A stretch of DNA of 64,000 bases from an uncultured Acidobacteriota bacterium (GTDB lineage: Bacteria > Acidobacteriota > Vicinamibacteria > Vicinamibacterales > 2-12-FULL-66-21), in contig CAWIKL010000001.1 of NCBI GenBank assembly GCA_963836665.1, positions 1,999,818 to 2,063,817 of the forward strand. The letters are read 5' to 3'. This document shows, piece after piece, positions 2,646-61,357 of the stretch. Both the position numbers and the translations under genes were made by a program. The notes beneath the pieces were generated by a model. It did no database searches. It was not told the DNA's origin and saw only the letters and a list, made by a program, of their open reading frames with translations. The number at the start of each line of letters is the position of its first letter. The first letter of the stretch is position 1.

Positions 2646-3914
2646 ATGCACGAGCCACTTCGCCCGTCACCTGTCGCGGCCACCCTACGTCACCCGCACA
2701 AGACGCGTCACTGGCTTGCCTGGCTTGTGGTCGTCGCGGTCACCGGCGTCTTGCTGCTGCCATTACTTCACAAACGATCCGTTGCGGCTGAGGCGGCCGC
2801 GGGCGGCGGCCGGGGCGGGCGGGGCGTCAGCTTCAGCGGCGACGCCACCCCGGTCAGCGTGGCCAAGGTCCAGACCGGCGACATGCCGATCTATCTCGAC
2901 GCCATGGGAACTGTGACGCCGCAGTCGACGGTCAACGTCTACAGCCAGGTCAGCGGCCGTGTCCTGTCGGTCAATTATCAGGAAGGTCAGATCGTCAGGA
3001 AGGGACAGGTACTCGTCGAGATCGATCCGCGGCCGACCGAAGCCCAGCTGCAGCAGGCGCAGGGAACGCTCAGCCGTGACCAGGCGGCGCTGCAACAGGC
3101 GCGCACCGATCTCCAGCGCTACGAGAACGCGCTCGAGGATCACGCCATTCCTGAGCAGACCGTGTCGGACCAGCGCGCCGTTGTCCGGCAGGACGAAGGC
3201 ACGATCGCCAACGATCAGGCGGCGGTTCAGTACGACCAGGTTCAGCTGAGCTACGCGCACATCGTCGCGCCGATTGCGGGCCGCATCGGTCTCCGCCTGG
3301 TCGACGCCGGCAACACCATCTTCTCGGGGAGCGGCACGACGATCGCGACAATCACCCAGATCGATCCGATCACGGTTGTCTTCTCGGTCGCCGAGGATCA
3401 TCTGCCGGAGGTCCAGAAGCAGCTGCGTGCCGGGCGCACGCTGACCGTCGATCTGTATGATCGCGCGCAATCGACCAAGATCGCGTCAGGGAAACTGCTC
3501 AGCCTCGATAACCAGGTCGATACCACGACCGGCACGGTGAAACTGCGCGCGCTGTTCAGCAACGCCCAGGGCGCGCTGTTCGCGAACCAGTTCGTGAGCA
3601 CGCGCCTGCAGGTCGACACCCTACGCAGTGCCAAGCTGATTCCGACCGTCGCGGTCCAGTACAACGGGCCGCAGGCGTTCGTCTATCTGGTGCAACCGAA
3701 CCAGACCGCCGTGCTGCGCAACATCACCGTCTCTAACACGGAGGCGAATCAGGCGGCCATCGACGGCCTGAACCCGGGCGATACCGTCGTGACCAGCAAC
3801 TTCGATCGGCTGCAGGACGGCGGGAAGATCGTCGACGCCGACGCGCAGCGCGGCCAGCGCGGCTCGACGCCGGCCCAGGGCGCGCCGGGACGCGGGAGGG
3901 GACGCCAGCAATGA
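2646..3914 (+). CDS. mdtA: RND efflux periplasmic adaptor subunit (MdtA-like, HlyD_D23 family)
   Basis: ATG at 2646 (MHEPLRPS...), then a TM anchor [19 protein letters not shown]. Shows barrel-sandwich, coiled-coil ([27 protein letters not shown]) and beta-barrel signatures. The TTG at 2550 extends the ORF but that stretch looks non-coding. The stop overlaps the mdtB start (ATGA). Confidence 0.85.
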
Positions 3915-45249: not shown

Positions 45250-46860
45250 ATGTCGACTGGAAAGACCTCGGCCTTTTACATCGTCCTCACTGCCGTCGCC
45301 GGGATGGCGGTCGGCATGGTCATCACCTCGCGACTGGACCTGACGCCGGCGTCGTCGGCGCAGACGATCGCGGTGCCGGCGGTCAACAGCGCGCCGCTGA
45401 CCGGGGCGATCGACGCGACGACCTTCCGCAACATCGCCAAGGGAAATGCGCCGGCCGTGGTCAACATCCAGACCGAGGTGCGGCAGCGCAGCCGCGATCT
45501 GACGGAGTACTTCGGCAACGGCGGCGACGATCTGCTGCGCCGCTTCTTCGGCGGCGACGACCAGGGCAACCAGGCGCCGCCGCGCCGCAACCGCGGCGGC
45601 GGCCAGGGGCAGGGGCAAGGACAGGGACAGGGGCGCGCGCAGCAGCCGGACCCGGTCCTCGAAGGGGCCGGCACCGGCTTCATCATCGACAAAGCGGGCT
45701 TCATCCTGACGAACAATCACGTCATCGAAGGGGCCGAGACCATCCGCGTCAGCCTCTATGGCGCCGAGCGGCTGGAGTCGTACGCCGCGAAGGTGGTCGG
45801 CCATGACACGCTGACCGACAGCGCGCTCATCCAGCTCACCGAGATGCCGCCGCAGCCGCTGTCAGAAGTGAAGCTGGGGGATTCGGACCAGATGCAGCCG
45901 GGCGACTGGGTCATGGCGATCGGCAACCCGTTCCGCCTCGGGCACAGTGTCAGCGTCGGGGTGATCAGCGCGCTCGGCCGTCCGTTCGGGGGGGTCCCGG
46001 GCCGCGAGCAGAACATGCTGCAGACCGACGCGGCGATCAACCCGGGAAACTCCGGCGGCCCGCTGCTCAACGTGCGCGGGGAAGTCGTCGGGATGAACAC
46101 CGCGATTTACACCGACCAGCGCTCGGCCAACATCGGCATCGGCTTCGCGACGCCGATGAACACCATCCGCGACCTGCTGCCGCAGCTGCGCAACGGCAAG
46201 GTCATCCGCGGCGTGATCGGCGTCACCGTGTCGAAGGATCACCTCACGCCGGAAACGGCGAAGGCCTTTGGGCTGCCGAACACGAGTGGTGCGCTGATTG
46301 CCACCGTCAACCCGAAGGGACCGGCCGACAAGGCCGGCCTCGAACCTGGTGACGTCGTCATCGACTTCAACGGCAAGGCGGTGAAGGACAGCGACTCGCT
46401 GGTGGCGATGGTGGTAAACACCAAACCGGGAACGGCGGCGCCGCTGACGATCTATCGCAACAACCAGCGCAAGGCGCTGAGCGTGACGATCGACGAGCTC
46501 GATCTCGAAGCGGAACAGACGCGCGGCACGCGGCGCAACGACACGCCTGAACAGCCGCAGCCGCAGCCGACGGCGACCGACTTCGGCATGACGCTCGACT
46601 CGATCACTCCCGACGTGGCGCGCAAGCTCGATCTGCCGGGCAACACCGGCGGTGCCGTCGTGACCGACGTCGATCACAACAGCGCGGCCGACAAGGCGGG
46701 GGTGGCGGCGGGCGACGTGATCCTCGAGGTGAACCGGCACAAGGTGTCGAACAAGAGCCAGGTCACGCGCGAGCTGCAGAACGTGCCGCCCGGCCAGCCG
46801 GCGTTCCTCCTAGTCTGGCGCGACAGCACCAGCGTCTTCGTCACCATGACAAAGCACTGA
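45250..46860 (+). CDS. htrA: periplasmic serine endoprotease HtrA/DegP/DegQ family with two PDZ domains (536 aa)
   Basis: TM/signal anchor, catalytic TNNHV...D..., GNSGGPLLN, and two PDZ domains (GALIATVNPKGPADKAGLEPGDVV and GAVVTDVDHNSAADKAGVAAGDVI). Confidence 0.9.
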   Translation: MSTGKTSAFYIVLTAVAGMAVGMVITSRLDLTPASSAQTIAVPAVNSAPLTGAIDATTFRNIAKGNAPAVVNIQTEVRQRSRDLTEYFGNGGDDLLRRFFGGDDQGNQAPPRRNRGGGQGQGQGQGQGRAQQPDPVLEGAGTGFIIDKAGFILTNNHVIEGAETIRVSLYGAERLESYAAKVVGHDTLTDSALIQLTEMPPQPLSEVKLGDSDQMQPGDWVMAIGNPFRLGHSVSVGVISALGRPFGGVPGREQNMLQTDAAINPGNSGGPLLNVRGEVVGMNTAIYTDQRSANIGIGFATPMNTIRDLLPQLRNGKVIRGVIGVTVSKDHLTPETAKAFGLPNTSGALIATVNPKGPADKAGLEPGDVVIDFNGKAVKDSDSLVAMVVNTKPGTAAPLTIYRNNQRKALSVTIDELDLEAEQTRGTRRNDTPEQPQPQPTATDFGMTLDSITPDVARKLDLPGNTGGAVVTDVDHNSAADKAGVAAGDVILEVNRHKVSNKSQVTRELQNVPPGQPAFLLVWRDSTSVFVTMTKH

Positions 46861-46990
46861 GTGACAATCGCCGATTGCAGACTGAAGAATGATGGATTGA
46901 CGATTGGATTGACAATCGCCAATCCAATCGTCAATCGTCACTCTGCAGTCCGTGAATCTTCAATCTGCAATCGGCAATCGCCAATTACCA
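46861..46990. repeat. cluster of CAATC/GATTG heptamer-spaced repeats, including a perfect 17-bp-stem hairpin (46895-46911 / 46920-46936)
   Basis: Read directly. GATTG occurs at 46873, 46895, 46902 and 46907. CAATC occurs at 46865, 46913, 46920, 46925, 46932, 46961, 46968 and 46975, plus a partial AATC at 46955 and a variant CAATT at 46982. Spacing is mostly 7 nt. The cluster starts immediately after the htrA stop. Local GC is far below the window average. Confidence 0.8.
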
Positions 46991-50427: not shown

Positions 50428-50519
50428 TTGAATCCCTAATCGTTTGATCGCTGATCCTGGATCGCTCATCGCGAATCCCGCATCGCGAATCCCCGTCTCG
50501 GGAATCCGCATCCTGAATC
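50428..50519. repeat. about 13 tandem degenerate heptamers (consensus SNNNATC: gctGATC, gctCATC, gcgAATC, ccgCATC ...)
   Basis: The terminal C of each ATC motif is at 50434, 50441, 50449, 50456, 50463, 50470, 50477, 50484, 50491, (50498), 50506, 50512 and 50519, that is, 7-nt periodicity. The array starts right after the TAG stop at 50425-50427. Confidence 0.8.
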
Positions 50520-50562
50520 GGCTCAGGGCTGCGAAGCGGTGTACAATGAGGGGTTCCCCACA

Positions 50563-51396
50563 ATGCGCTTCGGCATTTCGACACACCTGTTTCACGAGCA
50601 GCGACTCAGCCGCGACCATCTGGCGCAAATCGCCGCGTACGGGTTCGAGGCGGTCGAGGTGTTCGCGACGCGGACTCACTTCGACTACCACGACCCTGCG
50701 GCGATCGCCGAGCTGGGGACGTGGCTGAAGGAAACGGGTCTGGCGCTGCACGGCATCCACGCGCCGATTACCGATCGGCTGGACCCCGGTGACAAGTGGG
50801 GCGACGTCATCTCGAACGGCGTCAGCGACAACGCCAAGCGGCGGACGGCAGTGCAGGAAGCGGCGGCCGCGCTGGCCATCGCCAGGACGATTCCGACCGA
50901 CGTCTTCGTGGTGCACCTGGGCACGCCGACCGTGCAGGGTGGGGAGAACAACCGCGGCGCGGCCCTGCGCAGTGCGGAAGACATCTGCCGGCTGGCGGAA
51001 CCGCTCGAAATTCGCGTCGCGCTCGAGGTGATCCCAAACCCGCTGTCGGACGCGGCCTCGCTCGTGGCGATGCTCGAACGCGATCTCGACGCGCCGCGGG
51101 CCGGCATCTGCCTCGACTTCGGGCACGCGTTCCTGATGGGGGACGTCGCCGACACGATCGAGACCGTCGCCGAACACCTGATCACGACCCACGTGCACGA
51201 CAACGCCGGCAAGAAAGACGAGCACCTGGTGCCCTTCGACGGGCGGATCAACTGGGACGTGGCCCTGATGACCATGCAGAAGGTCGGCTACGACGGAACA
51301 TACCTGATGGAGCTGGCCAACACCGGCTCGCCCGCCGGCGTCCTCAAGCAGGCTCAGGCCGCGCGGCAGCGCTTCGAGAAACTGTTGGCCTACTGA
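50563..51396 (+). CDS. sugar phosphate isomerase/epimerase (xylose-isomerase-like TIM barrel, 277 aa)
   Basis: [10 protein letters not shown]..., E..E..H..D..E metal-ligand pattern ([24 protein letters not shown]). A GTG at 50539 is an alternative start. Confidence 0.75.
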
Positions 51397-52695: not shown

Positions 52696-52696
<1 letters not shown>

Positions 52697-54117
52697 TGAA
52701 AATCGGCTTCATCTCCCTCGGCTGCCCGAAGAACCTCGTCGACGGCGAGGTGATGCTGGGTATGGCGCAGCAGGCCGGTCACGAGATCACGCCCGAGGCG
52801 CGGGACGCCGACGTCCTGGTGGTCAACACCTGCGCCTTCATCGACAACGCCAAGCAGGAGTCGATCGACGCCATCCTCGAGATGGCGCAGTACAAGCGTG
52901 CGGGCACGGCCTCGCGCCTCGTCGTCACCGGCTGCCTGGCCGAACGCTACCGCGATGAATTGCGCCGGGAGATCCCGGAGATCGACGCGTTGCTCGGGAC
53001 CGGCGAACTGCCGGGCATCGTCGAGGCGCTGGATGGGATGGGCGAGGGGCGAACGGCGAGGGGCGATGGGTCGACGAACGCGAACGCCCAGGTTCGGCCT
53101 CTCACCTTTCACAAGAAGTCCCTCGCGCCTCGCCCCTCGCCCCTCGCCTCCCGCGCGCAACCACCGACGTATCTCTACGACGCTTCGACGCCGCGTCTCC
53201 TGACGACCCCGCGGCACTTCGCCTACGTCAAGGTCGCTGAAGGCTGCGACTACACCTGCGCCTTCTGCATCATCCCGACGCTGCGCGGCGCGTACCGCAG
53301 CCGCGCCCACGACTCGGTGATTGCCGAGGCACGGGCGCTGGCGGCGCGCGGCGTCAAAGAATTGCTGCTGATCTCGCAGGACACGACCTTCTACGGCATC
53401 GATCGACAGGAGCGCGGCGCGCTGGCGAAGCTGCTGCGCGAGCTCAACACCGTCGACGGCCTCGAATGGATCCGCCTGCTCTATCTCTACCCGACGACGA
53501 TCACCGACGACGTCCTCGACGCGATGGCCGAGTGCGAGAAGGTCTGCCGCTACGTCGACCTGCCGCTGCAGCACGCCTCGGCCGAGGTGCTCAAGCGGAT
53601 GCGGCGGCCCGGCAATCGGCGGACCTACGACGCGCTGCTGGCGCGGATCCGCGCGCGCGTCCCTGGCGTCACTCTGAGGACGACCTTCATCGTCGGCTTC
53701 CCGGGCGAGACCGAGGCCGAGTTCGCCGAACTCGAGGCATTCGTCGCGGACACGCGGTTCGACCACATCGGTGTCTTCACCTACTCGCACGAGGAAGGCA
53801 CCCGCGCCCACGCCGCCGCCGACGACGTGCCGGCGGTGACCAAGCGCAAACGCCGCGACGCGATCATGAAGCGGCAGCAGCGCATCGTTGCGACCCGCCA
53901 GCAGGCGATGCTCGGCTCGGAGGTCTGCGTACTCATCGACGGTCCGTCGCCGGAGCACGAACTGGTGATCCACGGACGCCTCGAAGGCCAGGCGCCCGAC
54001 ATCGATCCGCTCGTCTATCTGACTGACAGCGATCCGTCGGCTTACGAGGGTGGTCAGCTCATCCGTGCGCGCGTGGTCGGCGCGCAGGGCTACGATCTGC
54101 TGGTGTCTCCTGTTTGA
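52696..54117 (+). CDS. rimO: ribosomal protein S12 methylthiotransferase RimO (473 aa, with an insert of about 40 aa)
   Basis: MKIGFISLGCPKNLVDGEVMLG (MTTase N-domain), radical-SAM CDYTCAFCIIP, and a TRAM domain at the C-terminus. The ATG overlaps the asnS stop by 1 nt (TGATG). Confidence 0.9.
53035..53155. repeat. inverted heptamer-repeat element inside rimO: (GGCGAGG-like)x4 at 53041-53068 and (CCTCGCC)x4 at 53121-53148
   Basis: Read directly. GGCGAGGGGCGA (53041-52 and 53055-66) is the exact reverse complement of TCGCCCCTCGCC (53130-41 and 53137-48). Confidence 0.8.
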
Positions 54118-59324: not shown

Positions 59325-60313
59325 CAAACCCGAAGAGCGACATCTGCGACGCGATTCACGCGCGCAGGCGCTTCCTGATTACCTCCCACGCCAAGCCTGA
59401 CGGGGACTCGATCGGCTCGCAGCTGGCGCTGGCCTACGCCCTCGAAGTGCTCGGCAAGGAGGTCCGCATCGTCAACGCCGACCCGGCGCCGGCGCACTAC
59501 GGTGACTTCCCCGGACTCGACCGCATCGAGATCATGCGCGAGCTGGTCGAGCGCCCCGGCCGCCGCGAGGACGAGGCGCTGCTGGTCATGGAGTCGAGCG
59601 ACCTGAAGCGAACCGGCGTTGCCGGATTCGAGGGGCGCTTCACCGTCAACGTCGATCATCACCAGGGCAATACCGGGTTCGGCGATCTCAACTGGATCGA
59701 CGAATCGGCGGCGGCCTGCGGCGAGATGGTCTTCGACCTGATCGAGGCTCTCGGGGTGCCGCTGACCATCGAGATCGCGACGCACGTCTACCTGGCCATC
59801 CTGACCGACACCGGCTCGTTCCACTACGCCAACATCACGCCGAAGACGTTCGACATCTGCCGCCGCTGCACCGAGGCAGGTGTCAATCCGGCGGCGATGG
59901 CGCGGCGGGTCTTCGACCAGAACAGCATCGGCAAGCTGAAACTGATTGGCGCACTGCTGGCGCAGATGGATCTCCTCGACGGCGGACGTCTGGCGGCGAT
60001 GTATCTCGACGACGACGTGCTCAACGCCACCGGGACGACCTACAACGATACCGAGGGGCTGATCAACCTGCCGCTGACGGCGAAGGAGATCCGCGCCGTC
60101 GTCTTTTTCAAGGTCGGCGCCGACGGCGACATCCACATCAGCATGCGTTCGAAGTACGACGTCGACGTCCGCACGGTCGCGGCGCGGCACGGCGGCGGCG
60201 GCCACAAGAACGCGGCCGGCTTCAAGGTGCGGGGCGCACTGAATGCCACGCGTGATGGCGTCCTGCGGGAAGTGACGGAGGCGATCGCGCTGGGCATTCA
60301 CGCGAGGCCGTGA
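59321..60313 (+). CDS. nrnA: DHH-family phosphoesterase, NrnA-like oligoribonuclease/pAp phosphatase (330 aa)
   Basis: HAKPDGDSIGS, DHH (NVDHHQGN) and a DHHA1 GGGH motif (HGGGGHKNAAGF). ATGA overlap with rbfA. Confidence 0.8.
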   Translation: MTNPKSDICDAIHARRRFLITSHAKPDGDSIGSQLALAYALEVLGKEVRIVNADPAPAHYGDFPGLDRIEIMRELVERPGRREDEALLVMESSDLKRTGVAGFEGRFTVNVDHHQGNTGFGDLNWIDESAAACGEMVFDLIEALGVPLTIEIATHVYLAILTDTGSFHYANITPKTFDICRRCTEAGVNPAAMARRVFDQNSIGKLKLIGALLAQMDLLDGGRLAAMYLDDDVLNATGTTYNDTEGLINLPLTAKEIRAVVFFKVGADGDIHISMRSKYDVDVRTVAARHGGGGHKNAAGFKVRGALNATRDGVLREVTEAIALGIHARP

Positions 60314-61326
60314 TGACGGCGCCAGGAGTTGTGGCGTTGGGCATTGACGCGGCGCGCGGCATGGCCGGCGCCTTACTGATCGACAAGCCATCGGGACCGA
60401 CGTCTCACGACGTGGTCGCCGTGCTCAGACGGACGCTCAAGACGCCGCGCGTCGGGCACACCGGCACGCTCGATCCGCTGGCGACGGGGCTGCTCGTCAT
60501 GCTGATCGGCGGGGCGACGCGCCTGGCGCAGTTCCTCGCCACCGACGAGAAGGAATACGTCGCCGACATCCGACTCGGCCTCGCGACGCCGACCTACGAC
60601 GCGGCGTCGCTGGCGGAGGGTGTCCGATCGCCAATGGACGATGGGCGATGGGCGATGGACGCGGATCTCGAATCGGTTCTCGACCGCTTTCGCGGCAGCT
60701 TTCTGCAGACCCCTCCCCAGTTCTCGGCGAAGAAGATCGGGGGAGTCGCGGCATATGAAAAGGCGCGAAGACACGAAACCGTCGACCTGAAGCCGACCCT
60801 TGTCACCGTCCGGGAGCTTGAAGTTCTCGGCCCATCGCCCACCGCCCATCGCTCATCGCGCATCGAACGGCGAGACGACACGCTCGTTCGTCTGAGGGTC
60901 GCGGCGAGCGCGGGGTTTTACGTCCGCTCTCTCGCGCACGACCTCGGTCAGGCGTTGGGCTGTGGCGCGCACCTTGAGGCGCTCCGCCGGATGCGTGTGG
61001 GTCGGTTCCGCGTCGAGGACGCGTTGACGCTGGATCGACTCGACGCGGCGAGCCCCGGACGCTTTATCGCGGCCGCCAGCCTGCTTGGGGACATGCCCGC
61101 AGTCACCTTGACCGAGCCCGGCGTTCAACGGGCAAGCCACGGAAACACCCTCGCCCCTGCCCACGCGAAACGAGAGGACAGCCCCCTCTTTCGCGTCCCG
61201 GAAACGGACAACAACGGGGGCGCGGTTGCCGTATTTGTGCGACTGCTCGAGGCGGACGGAACGCTGCTCGCGGTGGCGGAAGCGCGTGGAGACGGGCTTT
61301 TGCATCCTATCGTCGTCTTAAGGTAA
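60310..61326 (+). CDS. truB: tRNA pseudouridine(55) synthase TruB (338 aa; start 60310/60313, or 60361)
   Basis: LLIDKPSGPTSHDVV, HTGTLDPLATGLL (catalytic Asp), FLQTPPQFSAKKIGG and GFYVRSLAHDLG. Overlaps the nrnA stop. Confidence 0.9.
   Translation: MMTAPGVVALGIDAARGMAGALLIDKPSGPTSHDVVAVLRRTLKTPRVGHTGTLDPLATGLLVMLIGGATRLAQFLATDEKEYVADIRLGLATPTYDAASLAEGVRSPMDDGRWAMDADLESVLDRFRGSFLQTPPQFSAKKIGGVAAYEKARRHETVDLKPTLVTVRELEVLGPSPTAHRSSRIERRDDTLVRLRVAASAGFYVRSLAHDLGQALGCGAHLEALRRMRVGRFRVEDALTLDRLDAASPGRFIAAASLLGDMPAVTLTEPGVQRASHGNTLAPAHAKREDSPLFRVPETDNNGGAVAVFVRLLEADGTLLAVAEARGDGLLHPIVVLR
60625..60673. repeat. heptamer array (CGATGGG-like, 7 units) inside truB
   Basis: cgatcgc caatgga cgatggg cgatggg cgatgga cgcggat ctcgaat, read directly. 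Confidence 0.75.
60831..60865. repeat. heptamer array (CCCATCG-like, 5 units) inside truB, reverse complement of the 60625 array
   Basis: cccatcg cccaccg cccatcg ctcatcg cgcatcg, read directly. The units ctcatcg and cgcatcg also occur in the 50428 array. Confidence 0.75.
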
Positions 61327-61357
61327 AATACTGAACCGTCTGTAAATACGGCAACGG

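Follow-up and report, generated by a model that had tools for sequence, protein, structure and literature searches.

Paired inverted heptamer arrays encoding two loops of an acidobacterial TruB and their possible origin

Heptamer arrays in the truB gene

The 64,000-nt stretch analysed here (the window; contig CAWIKL010000001.1 of an uncultured Acidobacteriota bacterium, positions 1,999,818 to 2,063,817) contains two arrays of 7-nt repeats inside truB, the gene for tRNA pseudouridine-55 synthase (60310..61326, + strand). The gene was assigned from the list of open reading frames (ORFs), from PF01509/PF16198 in its homologues and from matches of its product to the solved TruB structures 1sgv, 1r3f and 1k8w. 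At 56-64 kb of the window, the ORF list gives the operon order infB-rbfA-DHH phosphoesterase-truB-rpsO-pnp, and the gene order around truB is identical on the contigs of its relatives.

The left array, (CGATNNN)n, occupies 60625..60673 (+) and consists of CGATCGC CAATGGA CGATGGG CGATGGG CGATGGA with degenerate flanks. Its well-formed stretch is 60632-60662, about 4-5 units, and the two terminal units (cgcggat, ctcgaat) are degenerate. The right array, (NNNATCG)n, occupies 60830..60865 (+), consists of CCCATCG CCCACCG CCCATCG CTCATCG CGCATCG and is the reverse complement of the left units. Tandem Repeats Finder reported a period of 7 for both (left, 60634-60658, 3.6 copies, 94% matches; right, 60830-60865, 5.1 copies, 86% matches). 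Two 37-nt arms, 60622-60658 and 60832-60868, separated by 173 nt, are 78% complementary, and their best-matching cores, 60639..60658 and 60832..60851 (both +), agree at 19 of 20 positions. Between the arms lies the conserved core of the protein (60674..60829, +; VLDRFRGSFLQTPPQFSAKKIGGVAAYEKARRHETVDLKPTLVTVRELEVL), which runs FRG...SAKK...VTV, includes the FRG and SAKK motifs and shows invariant alignment columns. A preliminary description of this DNA had reported the arrays, and their sequence and coordinates in truB match ours. Its list of left units holds for the inner ones and is weak for the outer cgatcgc, cgcggat and ctcgaat; the reverse complementarity that it claimed stands, with a measured gap of 173 nt instead of about 160 nt.

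The truB inverted arrays are real and lie far above chance. Codon-order shuffles and synonymous resampling with the protein fixed served as reference sets, with 300 trials each. The best ungapped inverted-repeat score of truB is 17, against 10.05 ± 1.12 for the codon-order shuffles and 10.38 ± 1.10 for the synonymous resampling, and none of the 300 trials reached it in either set. Shuffling had been set beforehand as the comparison that could overturn the claimed complementarity, which thus holds under control for composition. Among inverted repeats of the window with a spacer of 20-400 nt, the truB pair ranks top, tied with a pair in rimO (53041/53148), and the third-best is an intergenic heptamer palindrome (46870-46975). 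A separate assembly from another sequencing run (L081) holds a truB gene identical to that of the window, so the arrays are not an assembly artefact.

In the truB frame the left array gives the peptide (R)SPMDDGRWAMDADLES, and its product, RSPMDDGRWAMDADLES, is placed by an AlphaFold2 (AF2) model and the solved structures in a loop ahead of helix 117-127. The right array gives GPSPTAHRSSRI(E), at the tip of a beta-hairpin, and the conserved FRGSFLQTPPQFSAKKIGGVAAYEKAR core sits between the two array-encoded peptides. Compared with the M. tuberculosis protein (1sgv), the left site has about 3-4 extra residues and the right site 10; compared with the E. coli protein (1r3f), the numbers are about 5 and 13. 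The AF2 model, built with 30 relatives as input and used for confidence and secondary structure only, has a mean predicted local distance difference test (pLDDT) score of 81. The pLDDT drops under 50 at residues 97-100 and 179-188, with an average of 56-65 for residues 91-110. Both arrays encode loops that have low confidence in this model and are insertions relative to the solved TruB structures. The earlier placement of the arrays in variable loops that bracket the TruB core agrees with the structures and with the relatives, and the gain of roughly 10 residues that it gave for the right loop against E. coli is confirmed as a gain, although its measured size is 13 residues there and about 10 against M. 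tuberculosis.

Arrays and arm matching in related truB genes

The relatives used for comparison are the 120 best TruB matches (58-100% identity), of which 115 (58-91%) were used in the loop tests. They are Vicinamibacterales-like Acidobacteriota. The nearest named genomes among the matches listed are metagenome-assembled genomes of Acidobacteriota/Vicinamibacterales, the best of which is only 50% identical, and a metagenome scan gave at least four close truB loci. Absence of the arrays from the truB genes of relatives, with no other copies in the genome, had been named beforehand as an observation that would count against them; the relatives do carry arrays, and most of the 115 have them at both loop sites, with copy number and unit sequence varying. 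By a crude motif, CGAT-type units occur at both loops in 75 of the 115. Loop lengths range from 17 to 39 residues on the left and from 10 to 71 on the right. Over the 120 best matches, the loop peptides are three-frame translations of heptamer arrays: PMADGRW, PISDVRY and similar peptides on the left come from (CGATNNN)n, and SAIGHRP, SDIGHRT and similar peptides on the right come from (NNNATCG)n. The DNA of 12 loci shows the same two arrays, with (CGATNNN)n at the left site and (NNNATCG)n at the right one. The segment from FRG to VTV between them is exactly 105 nt long in all eight relatives parsed.

Change over short distances is slow. The arrays are unchanged in a 99%-identical strain, and a 91% relative differs by a 3-nt deletion and a few substitutions. 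A more distant relative (L163; 86% by BLASTP, 88% in the alignment) has indels of +11 nt and +1 nt relative to the window, which jointly restore the frame. Non-triplet indels therefore occur and are rescued by compensation, which bears out the earlier remark that slippage by a 7-nt unit disrupts the frame. The reading frame is intact and in forward orientation in all 120 listed relatives. Because short-range change is slow, the truB arrays are not a hypervariable contingency locus. The architecture is not universal: no recognisable right array was seen in the relatives P0073, P0110 and P0028, and only one of the two sites holds an array at several distant loci. In other Acidobacteriota (L086, L087, L089-L094), whole hairpins from several unrelated families sit in the left loop of truB.

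Each left arm is a closer match to the right arm of its own gene than to the arms of other species. Over the 12 DNA loci, own-partner duplex energy (double-centred) was more favourable than cross-species energy, with 0 of 20000 permutations as extreme, and 1 of 20000 when the two closest relatives were left out. The variable triplets are species-specific and common to both arms: GGG/GGA in the window, GGC/GAC in L165, GGT/GAT/GGC in L166, and ATC in L082 and L083. A degenerate back-translation test over 115 proteins gave z = 9.8. Unit order adds weakly beyond unit composition (mean z -0.73 by permutation).

Matched arms were also found with unrelated units, the non-CGAT types being tested by degenerate back-translation only, which carries little information. 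They include GAGGTCC/GGACCTC (P0083), GGTTGGA/TCCAACC (P0053), GGTCCGTGG/CCACGGACC (P0115), GGCGAGG-type units (P0098, P0116) and the polarity-reversed CCGCTCC/GGAGCGG (P0111), and in each of these the own right arm ranks 1-3 among 115. At only 43% identity, L024 combines a left (GGATCGC)n array with a right (GCGATCC)n array, which match at 26 of 27 positions; its right arm lies at the position of the window's right arm and its left arm within the same loop as that of the window. An exception to the covariation is L010, which has arrays at both sites with non-complementary units.

Similar arrays elsewhere in the window

The window, 64 kb of a 4.0-Mb genome, holds 4-5 heptamer-array loci. Period-7 arrays number four, versus 0-1 for the periods 5, 8, 10 and 11, which like 7 are not multiples of 3. 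As a single heptamer, CGATGGG is not enriched in the window (20 matches versus 18.1 expected), whereas its dimer with up to two mismatches is (10 versus 1.8 expected, 0 of 100 shuffles), and all the dimer matches fall within the truB or rimO arrays. Enrichment is confined to the arrays.

The rimO gene (about 52696-54117) has the same arrangement as truB, one architecture appearing twice within 8 kb. Its left array, (GGGCGAG/GGGCGAT)n, lies at 53036..53070 (+) and gives the product DGMGEGRTARGDG in the linker after GIVEAL; its right array, (CCCTCGC)n, lies at 53120..53156 (+) and gives SLAPRPSPLASR. The two flank a conserved (R)PLTFHKK in the linker that joins the N-terminal domain to the radical-SAM motif. 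The 151-nt rimO region folds with z -4.19. The preliminary description had likened rimO to truB, and the paired inverted heptamer architecture is indeed present there. RimO relatives, which at about 80% identity are Vicinamibacterales by NCBI name, keep the architecture with CGAT-type or other units, such as GGAGGTT/CCAACCT in P0209 and (CCGTGNT)n/(CCACGGC)n in L167, and one or both arms have been lost in P0156, P0185 and P0207.

Two intergenic arrays were also found. A nested palindrome of (GATTGNN)/(NNCAATC) heptamers lies at 46870..46990, after an ORF ending at 46860. Within 46865-46990, a perfect inner hairpin, GATTGACGATTGGATTG...CAATCCAATCGTCAATC, is accompanied by outer arms at 46870/46975; the palindrome is of one element class with the truB arrays and may act as a terminator. 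An array of period 7/14 (CATCGCG AATCCCG ...) lies at 50428..50520, upstream of an AP-endonuclease-like ORF (50539-51396). It has the 13-mer ATCGCTCATCGCG in common with the right truB array, in line with the earlier statement that units are shared between the two. In L167 the spacer syntenic to this array has no array.

Arms at each locus match each other best. Over 28 nt, the own partner matches at 23 positions for truB, 24 for rimO and 23 for the 46.9-kb palindrome, versus 13-22 for non-partners in the window; in L167, truB and rimO both have 22 for the own partner versus 17. In L166 (1420-1620), intergenic (CCCAACT)n/(AGTTGGG)n arrays stand directly upstream of truB arrays of the CGATGGT type. 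Own-partner matching is thus locus-specific and units are mixed in L166, so no single unit is imposed genome-wide. Hairpin-type heptamer repeats appear to be common in the host lineage, both in intergenic sequence and in frame within permissive loops of housekeeping genes. The intergenic arrays of L166 are also translated at the N-terminus of a database gene call, P0052 (LGVGNLWELGVGN...), a protein that appears lengthened by the repeats.

Interpretation and additional repeats in truB

We consider it about an even chance (probability roughly 0.5) that the arrays are DNA-level hairpin repeats which the gene tolerates and which slippage and intramolecular template switching have made and homogenised. 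Replication slippage would lengthen or shorten each arm. In quasi-palindrome copying, the nascent strand would take the other arm as template, which would seed an inverted partner and keep the arms alike. Selection on TruB would merely act as a filter by which the frame is kept, stop codons are avoided and arrays are confined to loops, and the arrays would be passengers without benefit to TruB. Template switching has been described to create and maintain hairpins (PMC8794818) and to homogenise and expand the arms of inverted repeats (PMC13100816). An example of its likely product is found in L114 (45% identity; 2560-2700), where the left loop, CGGACACCACCGATCTTCTTGGCCGAAA, matches the reverse complement of TTTCGGCCAAGAAGATCGGTGGTGTCCG perfectly over 28 nt; TTTCGGCCAAGAAGATCGGTGGTGTCCG is the coding sequence of FSAKKIGGVR 83 nt downstream. 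The L114 loop is a local inverted duplication as from template switching, at the site of the window's left array. For the window, we infer that template switching has acted on its own arrays and that these are probably neutral.

Several points weigh against this origin. L114 is a distant relative, and its inverted copy has no heptamers. For the window's arrays no template-switch event has been reconstructed, and the support comes from variants shared by the two arms. The 7-nt period is not explained by template switching. In one clear counter-example, P0086, a left arm of GGC type faces a right arm of GACCTCG type, and the rank of the own partner is 105 among 115. The covariation tests ignore phylogeny, so the independent unit switches number about ten (perhaps 6-10) and not about a hundred. 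The presence of arrays at these two positions even at 43% identity could also be a sign of selection. The unit families CGATNNN, CGAGGTC, GGTTGGAGG and GGCGAGG recur in truB, in rimO and across genomes, which would be easier to explain by a propagating element or ectopic conversion than by purely local evolution.

Whether the arms are matched at the level of RNA or DNA bears directly on the origin. The preliminary description had suggested that the arrays could pair, in RNA or single-stranded DNA, so that the segment between them is looped out. Such a long-range stem, a duplex of 20-35 bp round the core in the infB-rbfA-truB-rpsO-pnp transcript with pairing under selection, could act, for example, as an RNase III site for processing or decay, or could pause translation. 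The minimum free energy (MFE) fold of 60600-60900 does pair the arrays, and the arrays alone reach about -50 kcal/mol; the 301-nt region, however, is no more stable than shuffled sequences (z -0.70, a value that is uninformative at 67% GC), and a search of the entire window (1-64000) at Rfam gathering thresholds matched no family. Complementarity survives complete turnover of the units, even in L024 at 43% identity, different lineages have used unrelated sequence, including the L114 copy of the core, to form an inverted repeat round this region, and the rimO pair folds with z of about -4.2, all of which would fit a selected stem. In contrast, the mismatches, read on the sense strand, show no excess of G·U over A·C. 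With the arms of ten loci set in heptamer register, 282 of 350 positions are Watson-Crick pairs, and the transition-type mismatches on the sense strand are 21 G·U versus 24 A·C (p = 0.77). G·U mismatches are expected to be favoured if an mRNA stem is under selection but not if the process acts on DNA, so the lack of a G·U excess argues against stem selection. Left and right arm lengths are not correlated over the 115 relatives (rho 0.14) and are often grossly unequal (for example P0114 and L084), the weak contribution of unit order also speaks against selection on the stem, three relatives lack a recognisable right array, and ribosomes would unwind a stem within a translated ORF. The complementarity, which is strand-symmetric and lacks an RNA wobble signature, looks like the product of a DNA-level process and not of mRNA-stem selection; the earlier suggestion of pairing is not supported as a functional feature, and a functional mRNA stem is unlikely. 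A somewhat better, though still doubtful, alternative is that non-autonomous mobile or propagating repeats colonised the two loops independently, in the manner of MITEs (miniature transposable elements bearing inverted repeats), of the repetitive extragenic palindromic (REP) doublets known as REPINs or of Rickettsia palindromic elements (RPEs), or by ectopic gene conversion. The inversion would in that case be a matter of history, and the likeness of the arms would reflect family-wide homogenisation. That unit families recur at truB, at rimO, between genes and in different genomes is consistent with this, as are the 13-mer common to the right truB array and the 50428 array, the complete hairpins of other families in the truB left loop, the arrays at one site only in some relatives, the non-complementary units of L010, and the roughly 185 dispersed heptamer arrays of Xanthomonas, many of them inverted pairs (PMC4692102). 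However, one contiguous insertion cannot yield arms split by an ancestral conserved coding segment, at all loci tested the own partner scores highest, neither defined termini nor target duplications were seen at the arrays, and the window's ORF list, the sole place searched, holds no transposase linked to them.

Two further explanations fare much worse. The length of a unit is not divisible by 3, and a 173-nt segment with open antisense frames is flanked by inverted repeats; both features would suit a contingency locus in which slippage frameshifts toggle truB, or an intragenic inverton in which the arms flip the core. But the arrays are identical in the 99%-identical strain and in the independent assembly, all 120 listed relatives are in frame and forward, and flipping would destroy the catalytic core. 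Phase variation was rejected on the first two of these grounds, and a locus of either kind is hardly credible. The G-rich left arm of truB (GGGCGAT GGGCGAT GG), the at least five G-tracts in the left arm of rimO and the reading given to the closest described family (PMC4692102) would point to a G-quadruplex-forming repeat with a regulatory role, as proposed for GGGAATC and GGGGAYT arrays. The truB array of the window, in contrast, holds only two full GGG tracts plus GG runs, most relatives have ATC, GTC or GAC units without G-tracts, and the polarity is reversed in P0111, in L091 and in the intergenic arrays of L166. As a general reading the G-quadruplex was rejected for the lack of G-tracts in most relatives, and a role of this kind is very improbable. 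It is also improbable, though less so, that Acidobacteriota have an active sequence-agnostic process, or a selected DNA or RNA structure, that installs and maintains paired inverted arrays round housekeeping cores. This may take the form of an intragenic stem controlling the processing of the infB-truB-rpsO-pnp mRNA, or of a dedicated system for writing 7-nt repeats; in either case the complementarity would be functional and not a mutational by-product.

Among known systems, the truB arrays are best read as an in-frame, split-arm variant of dispersed inverted heptamer repeats of the Xanthomonas type. Heptameric simple sequence repeat arrays are dispersed in Xanthomonas, as (GGGAATC)n, and in Nostoc, as (GGGGAYT)n (Rehm et al. 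2015, PMC4692102). In Xanthomonas, 70-75 close pairs of arrays on opposite strands per genome could form stem-loops, and 7-11% of the arrays are intragenic (PMC4692102). The likeness lies in tandem 7-nt units with few copies per array (3.6 and 5.1 in truB), in close pairs of opposite orientation (truB, rimO and the 46.9-kb palindrome), in having one G-rich and one C-rich arm, and in GAATCCC-type units in the 50428 array; dispersal would be a further likeness, to judge from the 4-5 loci in 64 kb. The differences are the other phylum, units that vary by locus and species, and the absence of a general G-quadruplex potential (fewer than four GGG tracts in truB). Moreover, the Xanthomonas arrays are mostly intergenic and within 50 bp of ORF ends, whereas the truB and rimO pairs lie deep inside ORFs and in frame; the truB arms are split by a conserved protein core, their position is conserved over a deep clade, and they co-vary. 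No account of such arrays turned up when the literature on Acidobacteria or Chloracidobacterium was searched for heptanucleotide repeats.

Other repeat families share single features with the truB arrays. Template-switch quasi-palindromes (Monttinen and Loytynoja 2022, PMC8794818; PMC13100816) resemble them in the perfect arm made by local inverted copying in L114, in arms homogenised and expanded without need of pairing selection and in strand-symmetric complementarity. Such hairpins have been described mainly for inverted repeats of ribosomal RNA, microRNA and promoters, and are not known from tandem-heptamer arms within bacterial ORFs that enclose over 170 nt of conserved coding sequence. 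As in RPEs, hairpin-forming repeats are tolerated in frame at surface positions of conserved genes, and the in-frame insertion at a permissive surface position, as judged from structure gaps and low pLDDT, is present in truB. RPEs, reportedly described by Ogata and colleagues in 2000, are palindromic repeats that lie in frame within protein-coding genes. An RPE is a single contiguous element of about 100-150 bp with a family consensus and one insertion point, unlike the tandem heptamer arms of truB, which lie in two separate loops with ancestral coding sequence between them. REP sequences are imperfect palindromes, 20-40 bp long and extragenic, that have conserved GTAG/CGTC heads and depend on REP-associated tyrosine transposases (RAYTs), and a REPIN is an inverted doublet of them with a spacer. 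The truB and rimO pairs are likewise short dispersed repeats in inverted doublets with a spacer, but lie deep inside ORFs. The short tandemly repeated repetitive (STRR) heptamers of cyanobacteria have a 7-nt period and are direct, intergenic and fixed in sequence. The TAACTGA direct repeats of Beggiatoaceae are reported to have the same period and to be likewise intergenic and of fixed sequence (PMC4679880). Both families resemble the truB arrays in the 7-nt period and differ from them in that the truB arrays are inverted, intragenic and variable.

If the arrays are tolerated products of slippage and template switching, the truB and rimO loci would record how these processes build long hairpins in essential coding sequence, with protein loops as the sole filter. 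Hundreds of orthologous loci with unit turnover would then allow the birth and homogenisation of inverted repeats to be measured without pairing selection, and arm covariation alone would be no proof of a functional RNA structure. The same origin would account for low-complexity acidobacterial peptides such as PMADGRW and SDIGHRT, and for gene-call artefacts that arise from translated intergenic arrays. If the stem is functional instead, the truB arrays would represent a novel type of intragenic regulatory element in a conserved operon.

Additional repeats were observed at other sites of truB. In L016 (about 3400-3560), truB has a long array of 9-nt units, (CCCGACCTT)n, which encodes (PDL)n, with an inverted partner of the (AGGTCGGGT) type inserted after the SAKK motif (thumb region), at a site that differs from those of the window arrays. 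A third variable site lies in the C-terminal region of truB, at about 61165-61250 of the window, and was seen in the relatives P0034, P0053 and P0070. Peptides like EKGDSPLF or EKGTCPLF occur there in one to three copies in relatives, and the window has the degenerate remnant REDSPLF. Back-translated by hand, EKGTCPLF would correspond to a near-perfect 24-nt palindrome (GAAAAGGGGACA followed by TGTCCCCTTTTC). In the last truB codons of the window, GTTGCCGTATTT (61225-61237) is complementary to AAATACGGCAAC (61344-61357) in the truB-rpsO spacer. This pair scores 14 as an inverted repeat, versus about 10 on average for shuffles, and may belong to a terminator or an S15 leader structure.

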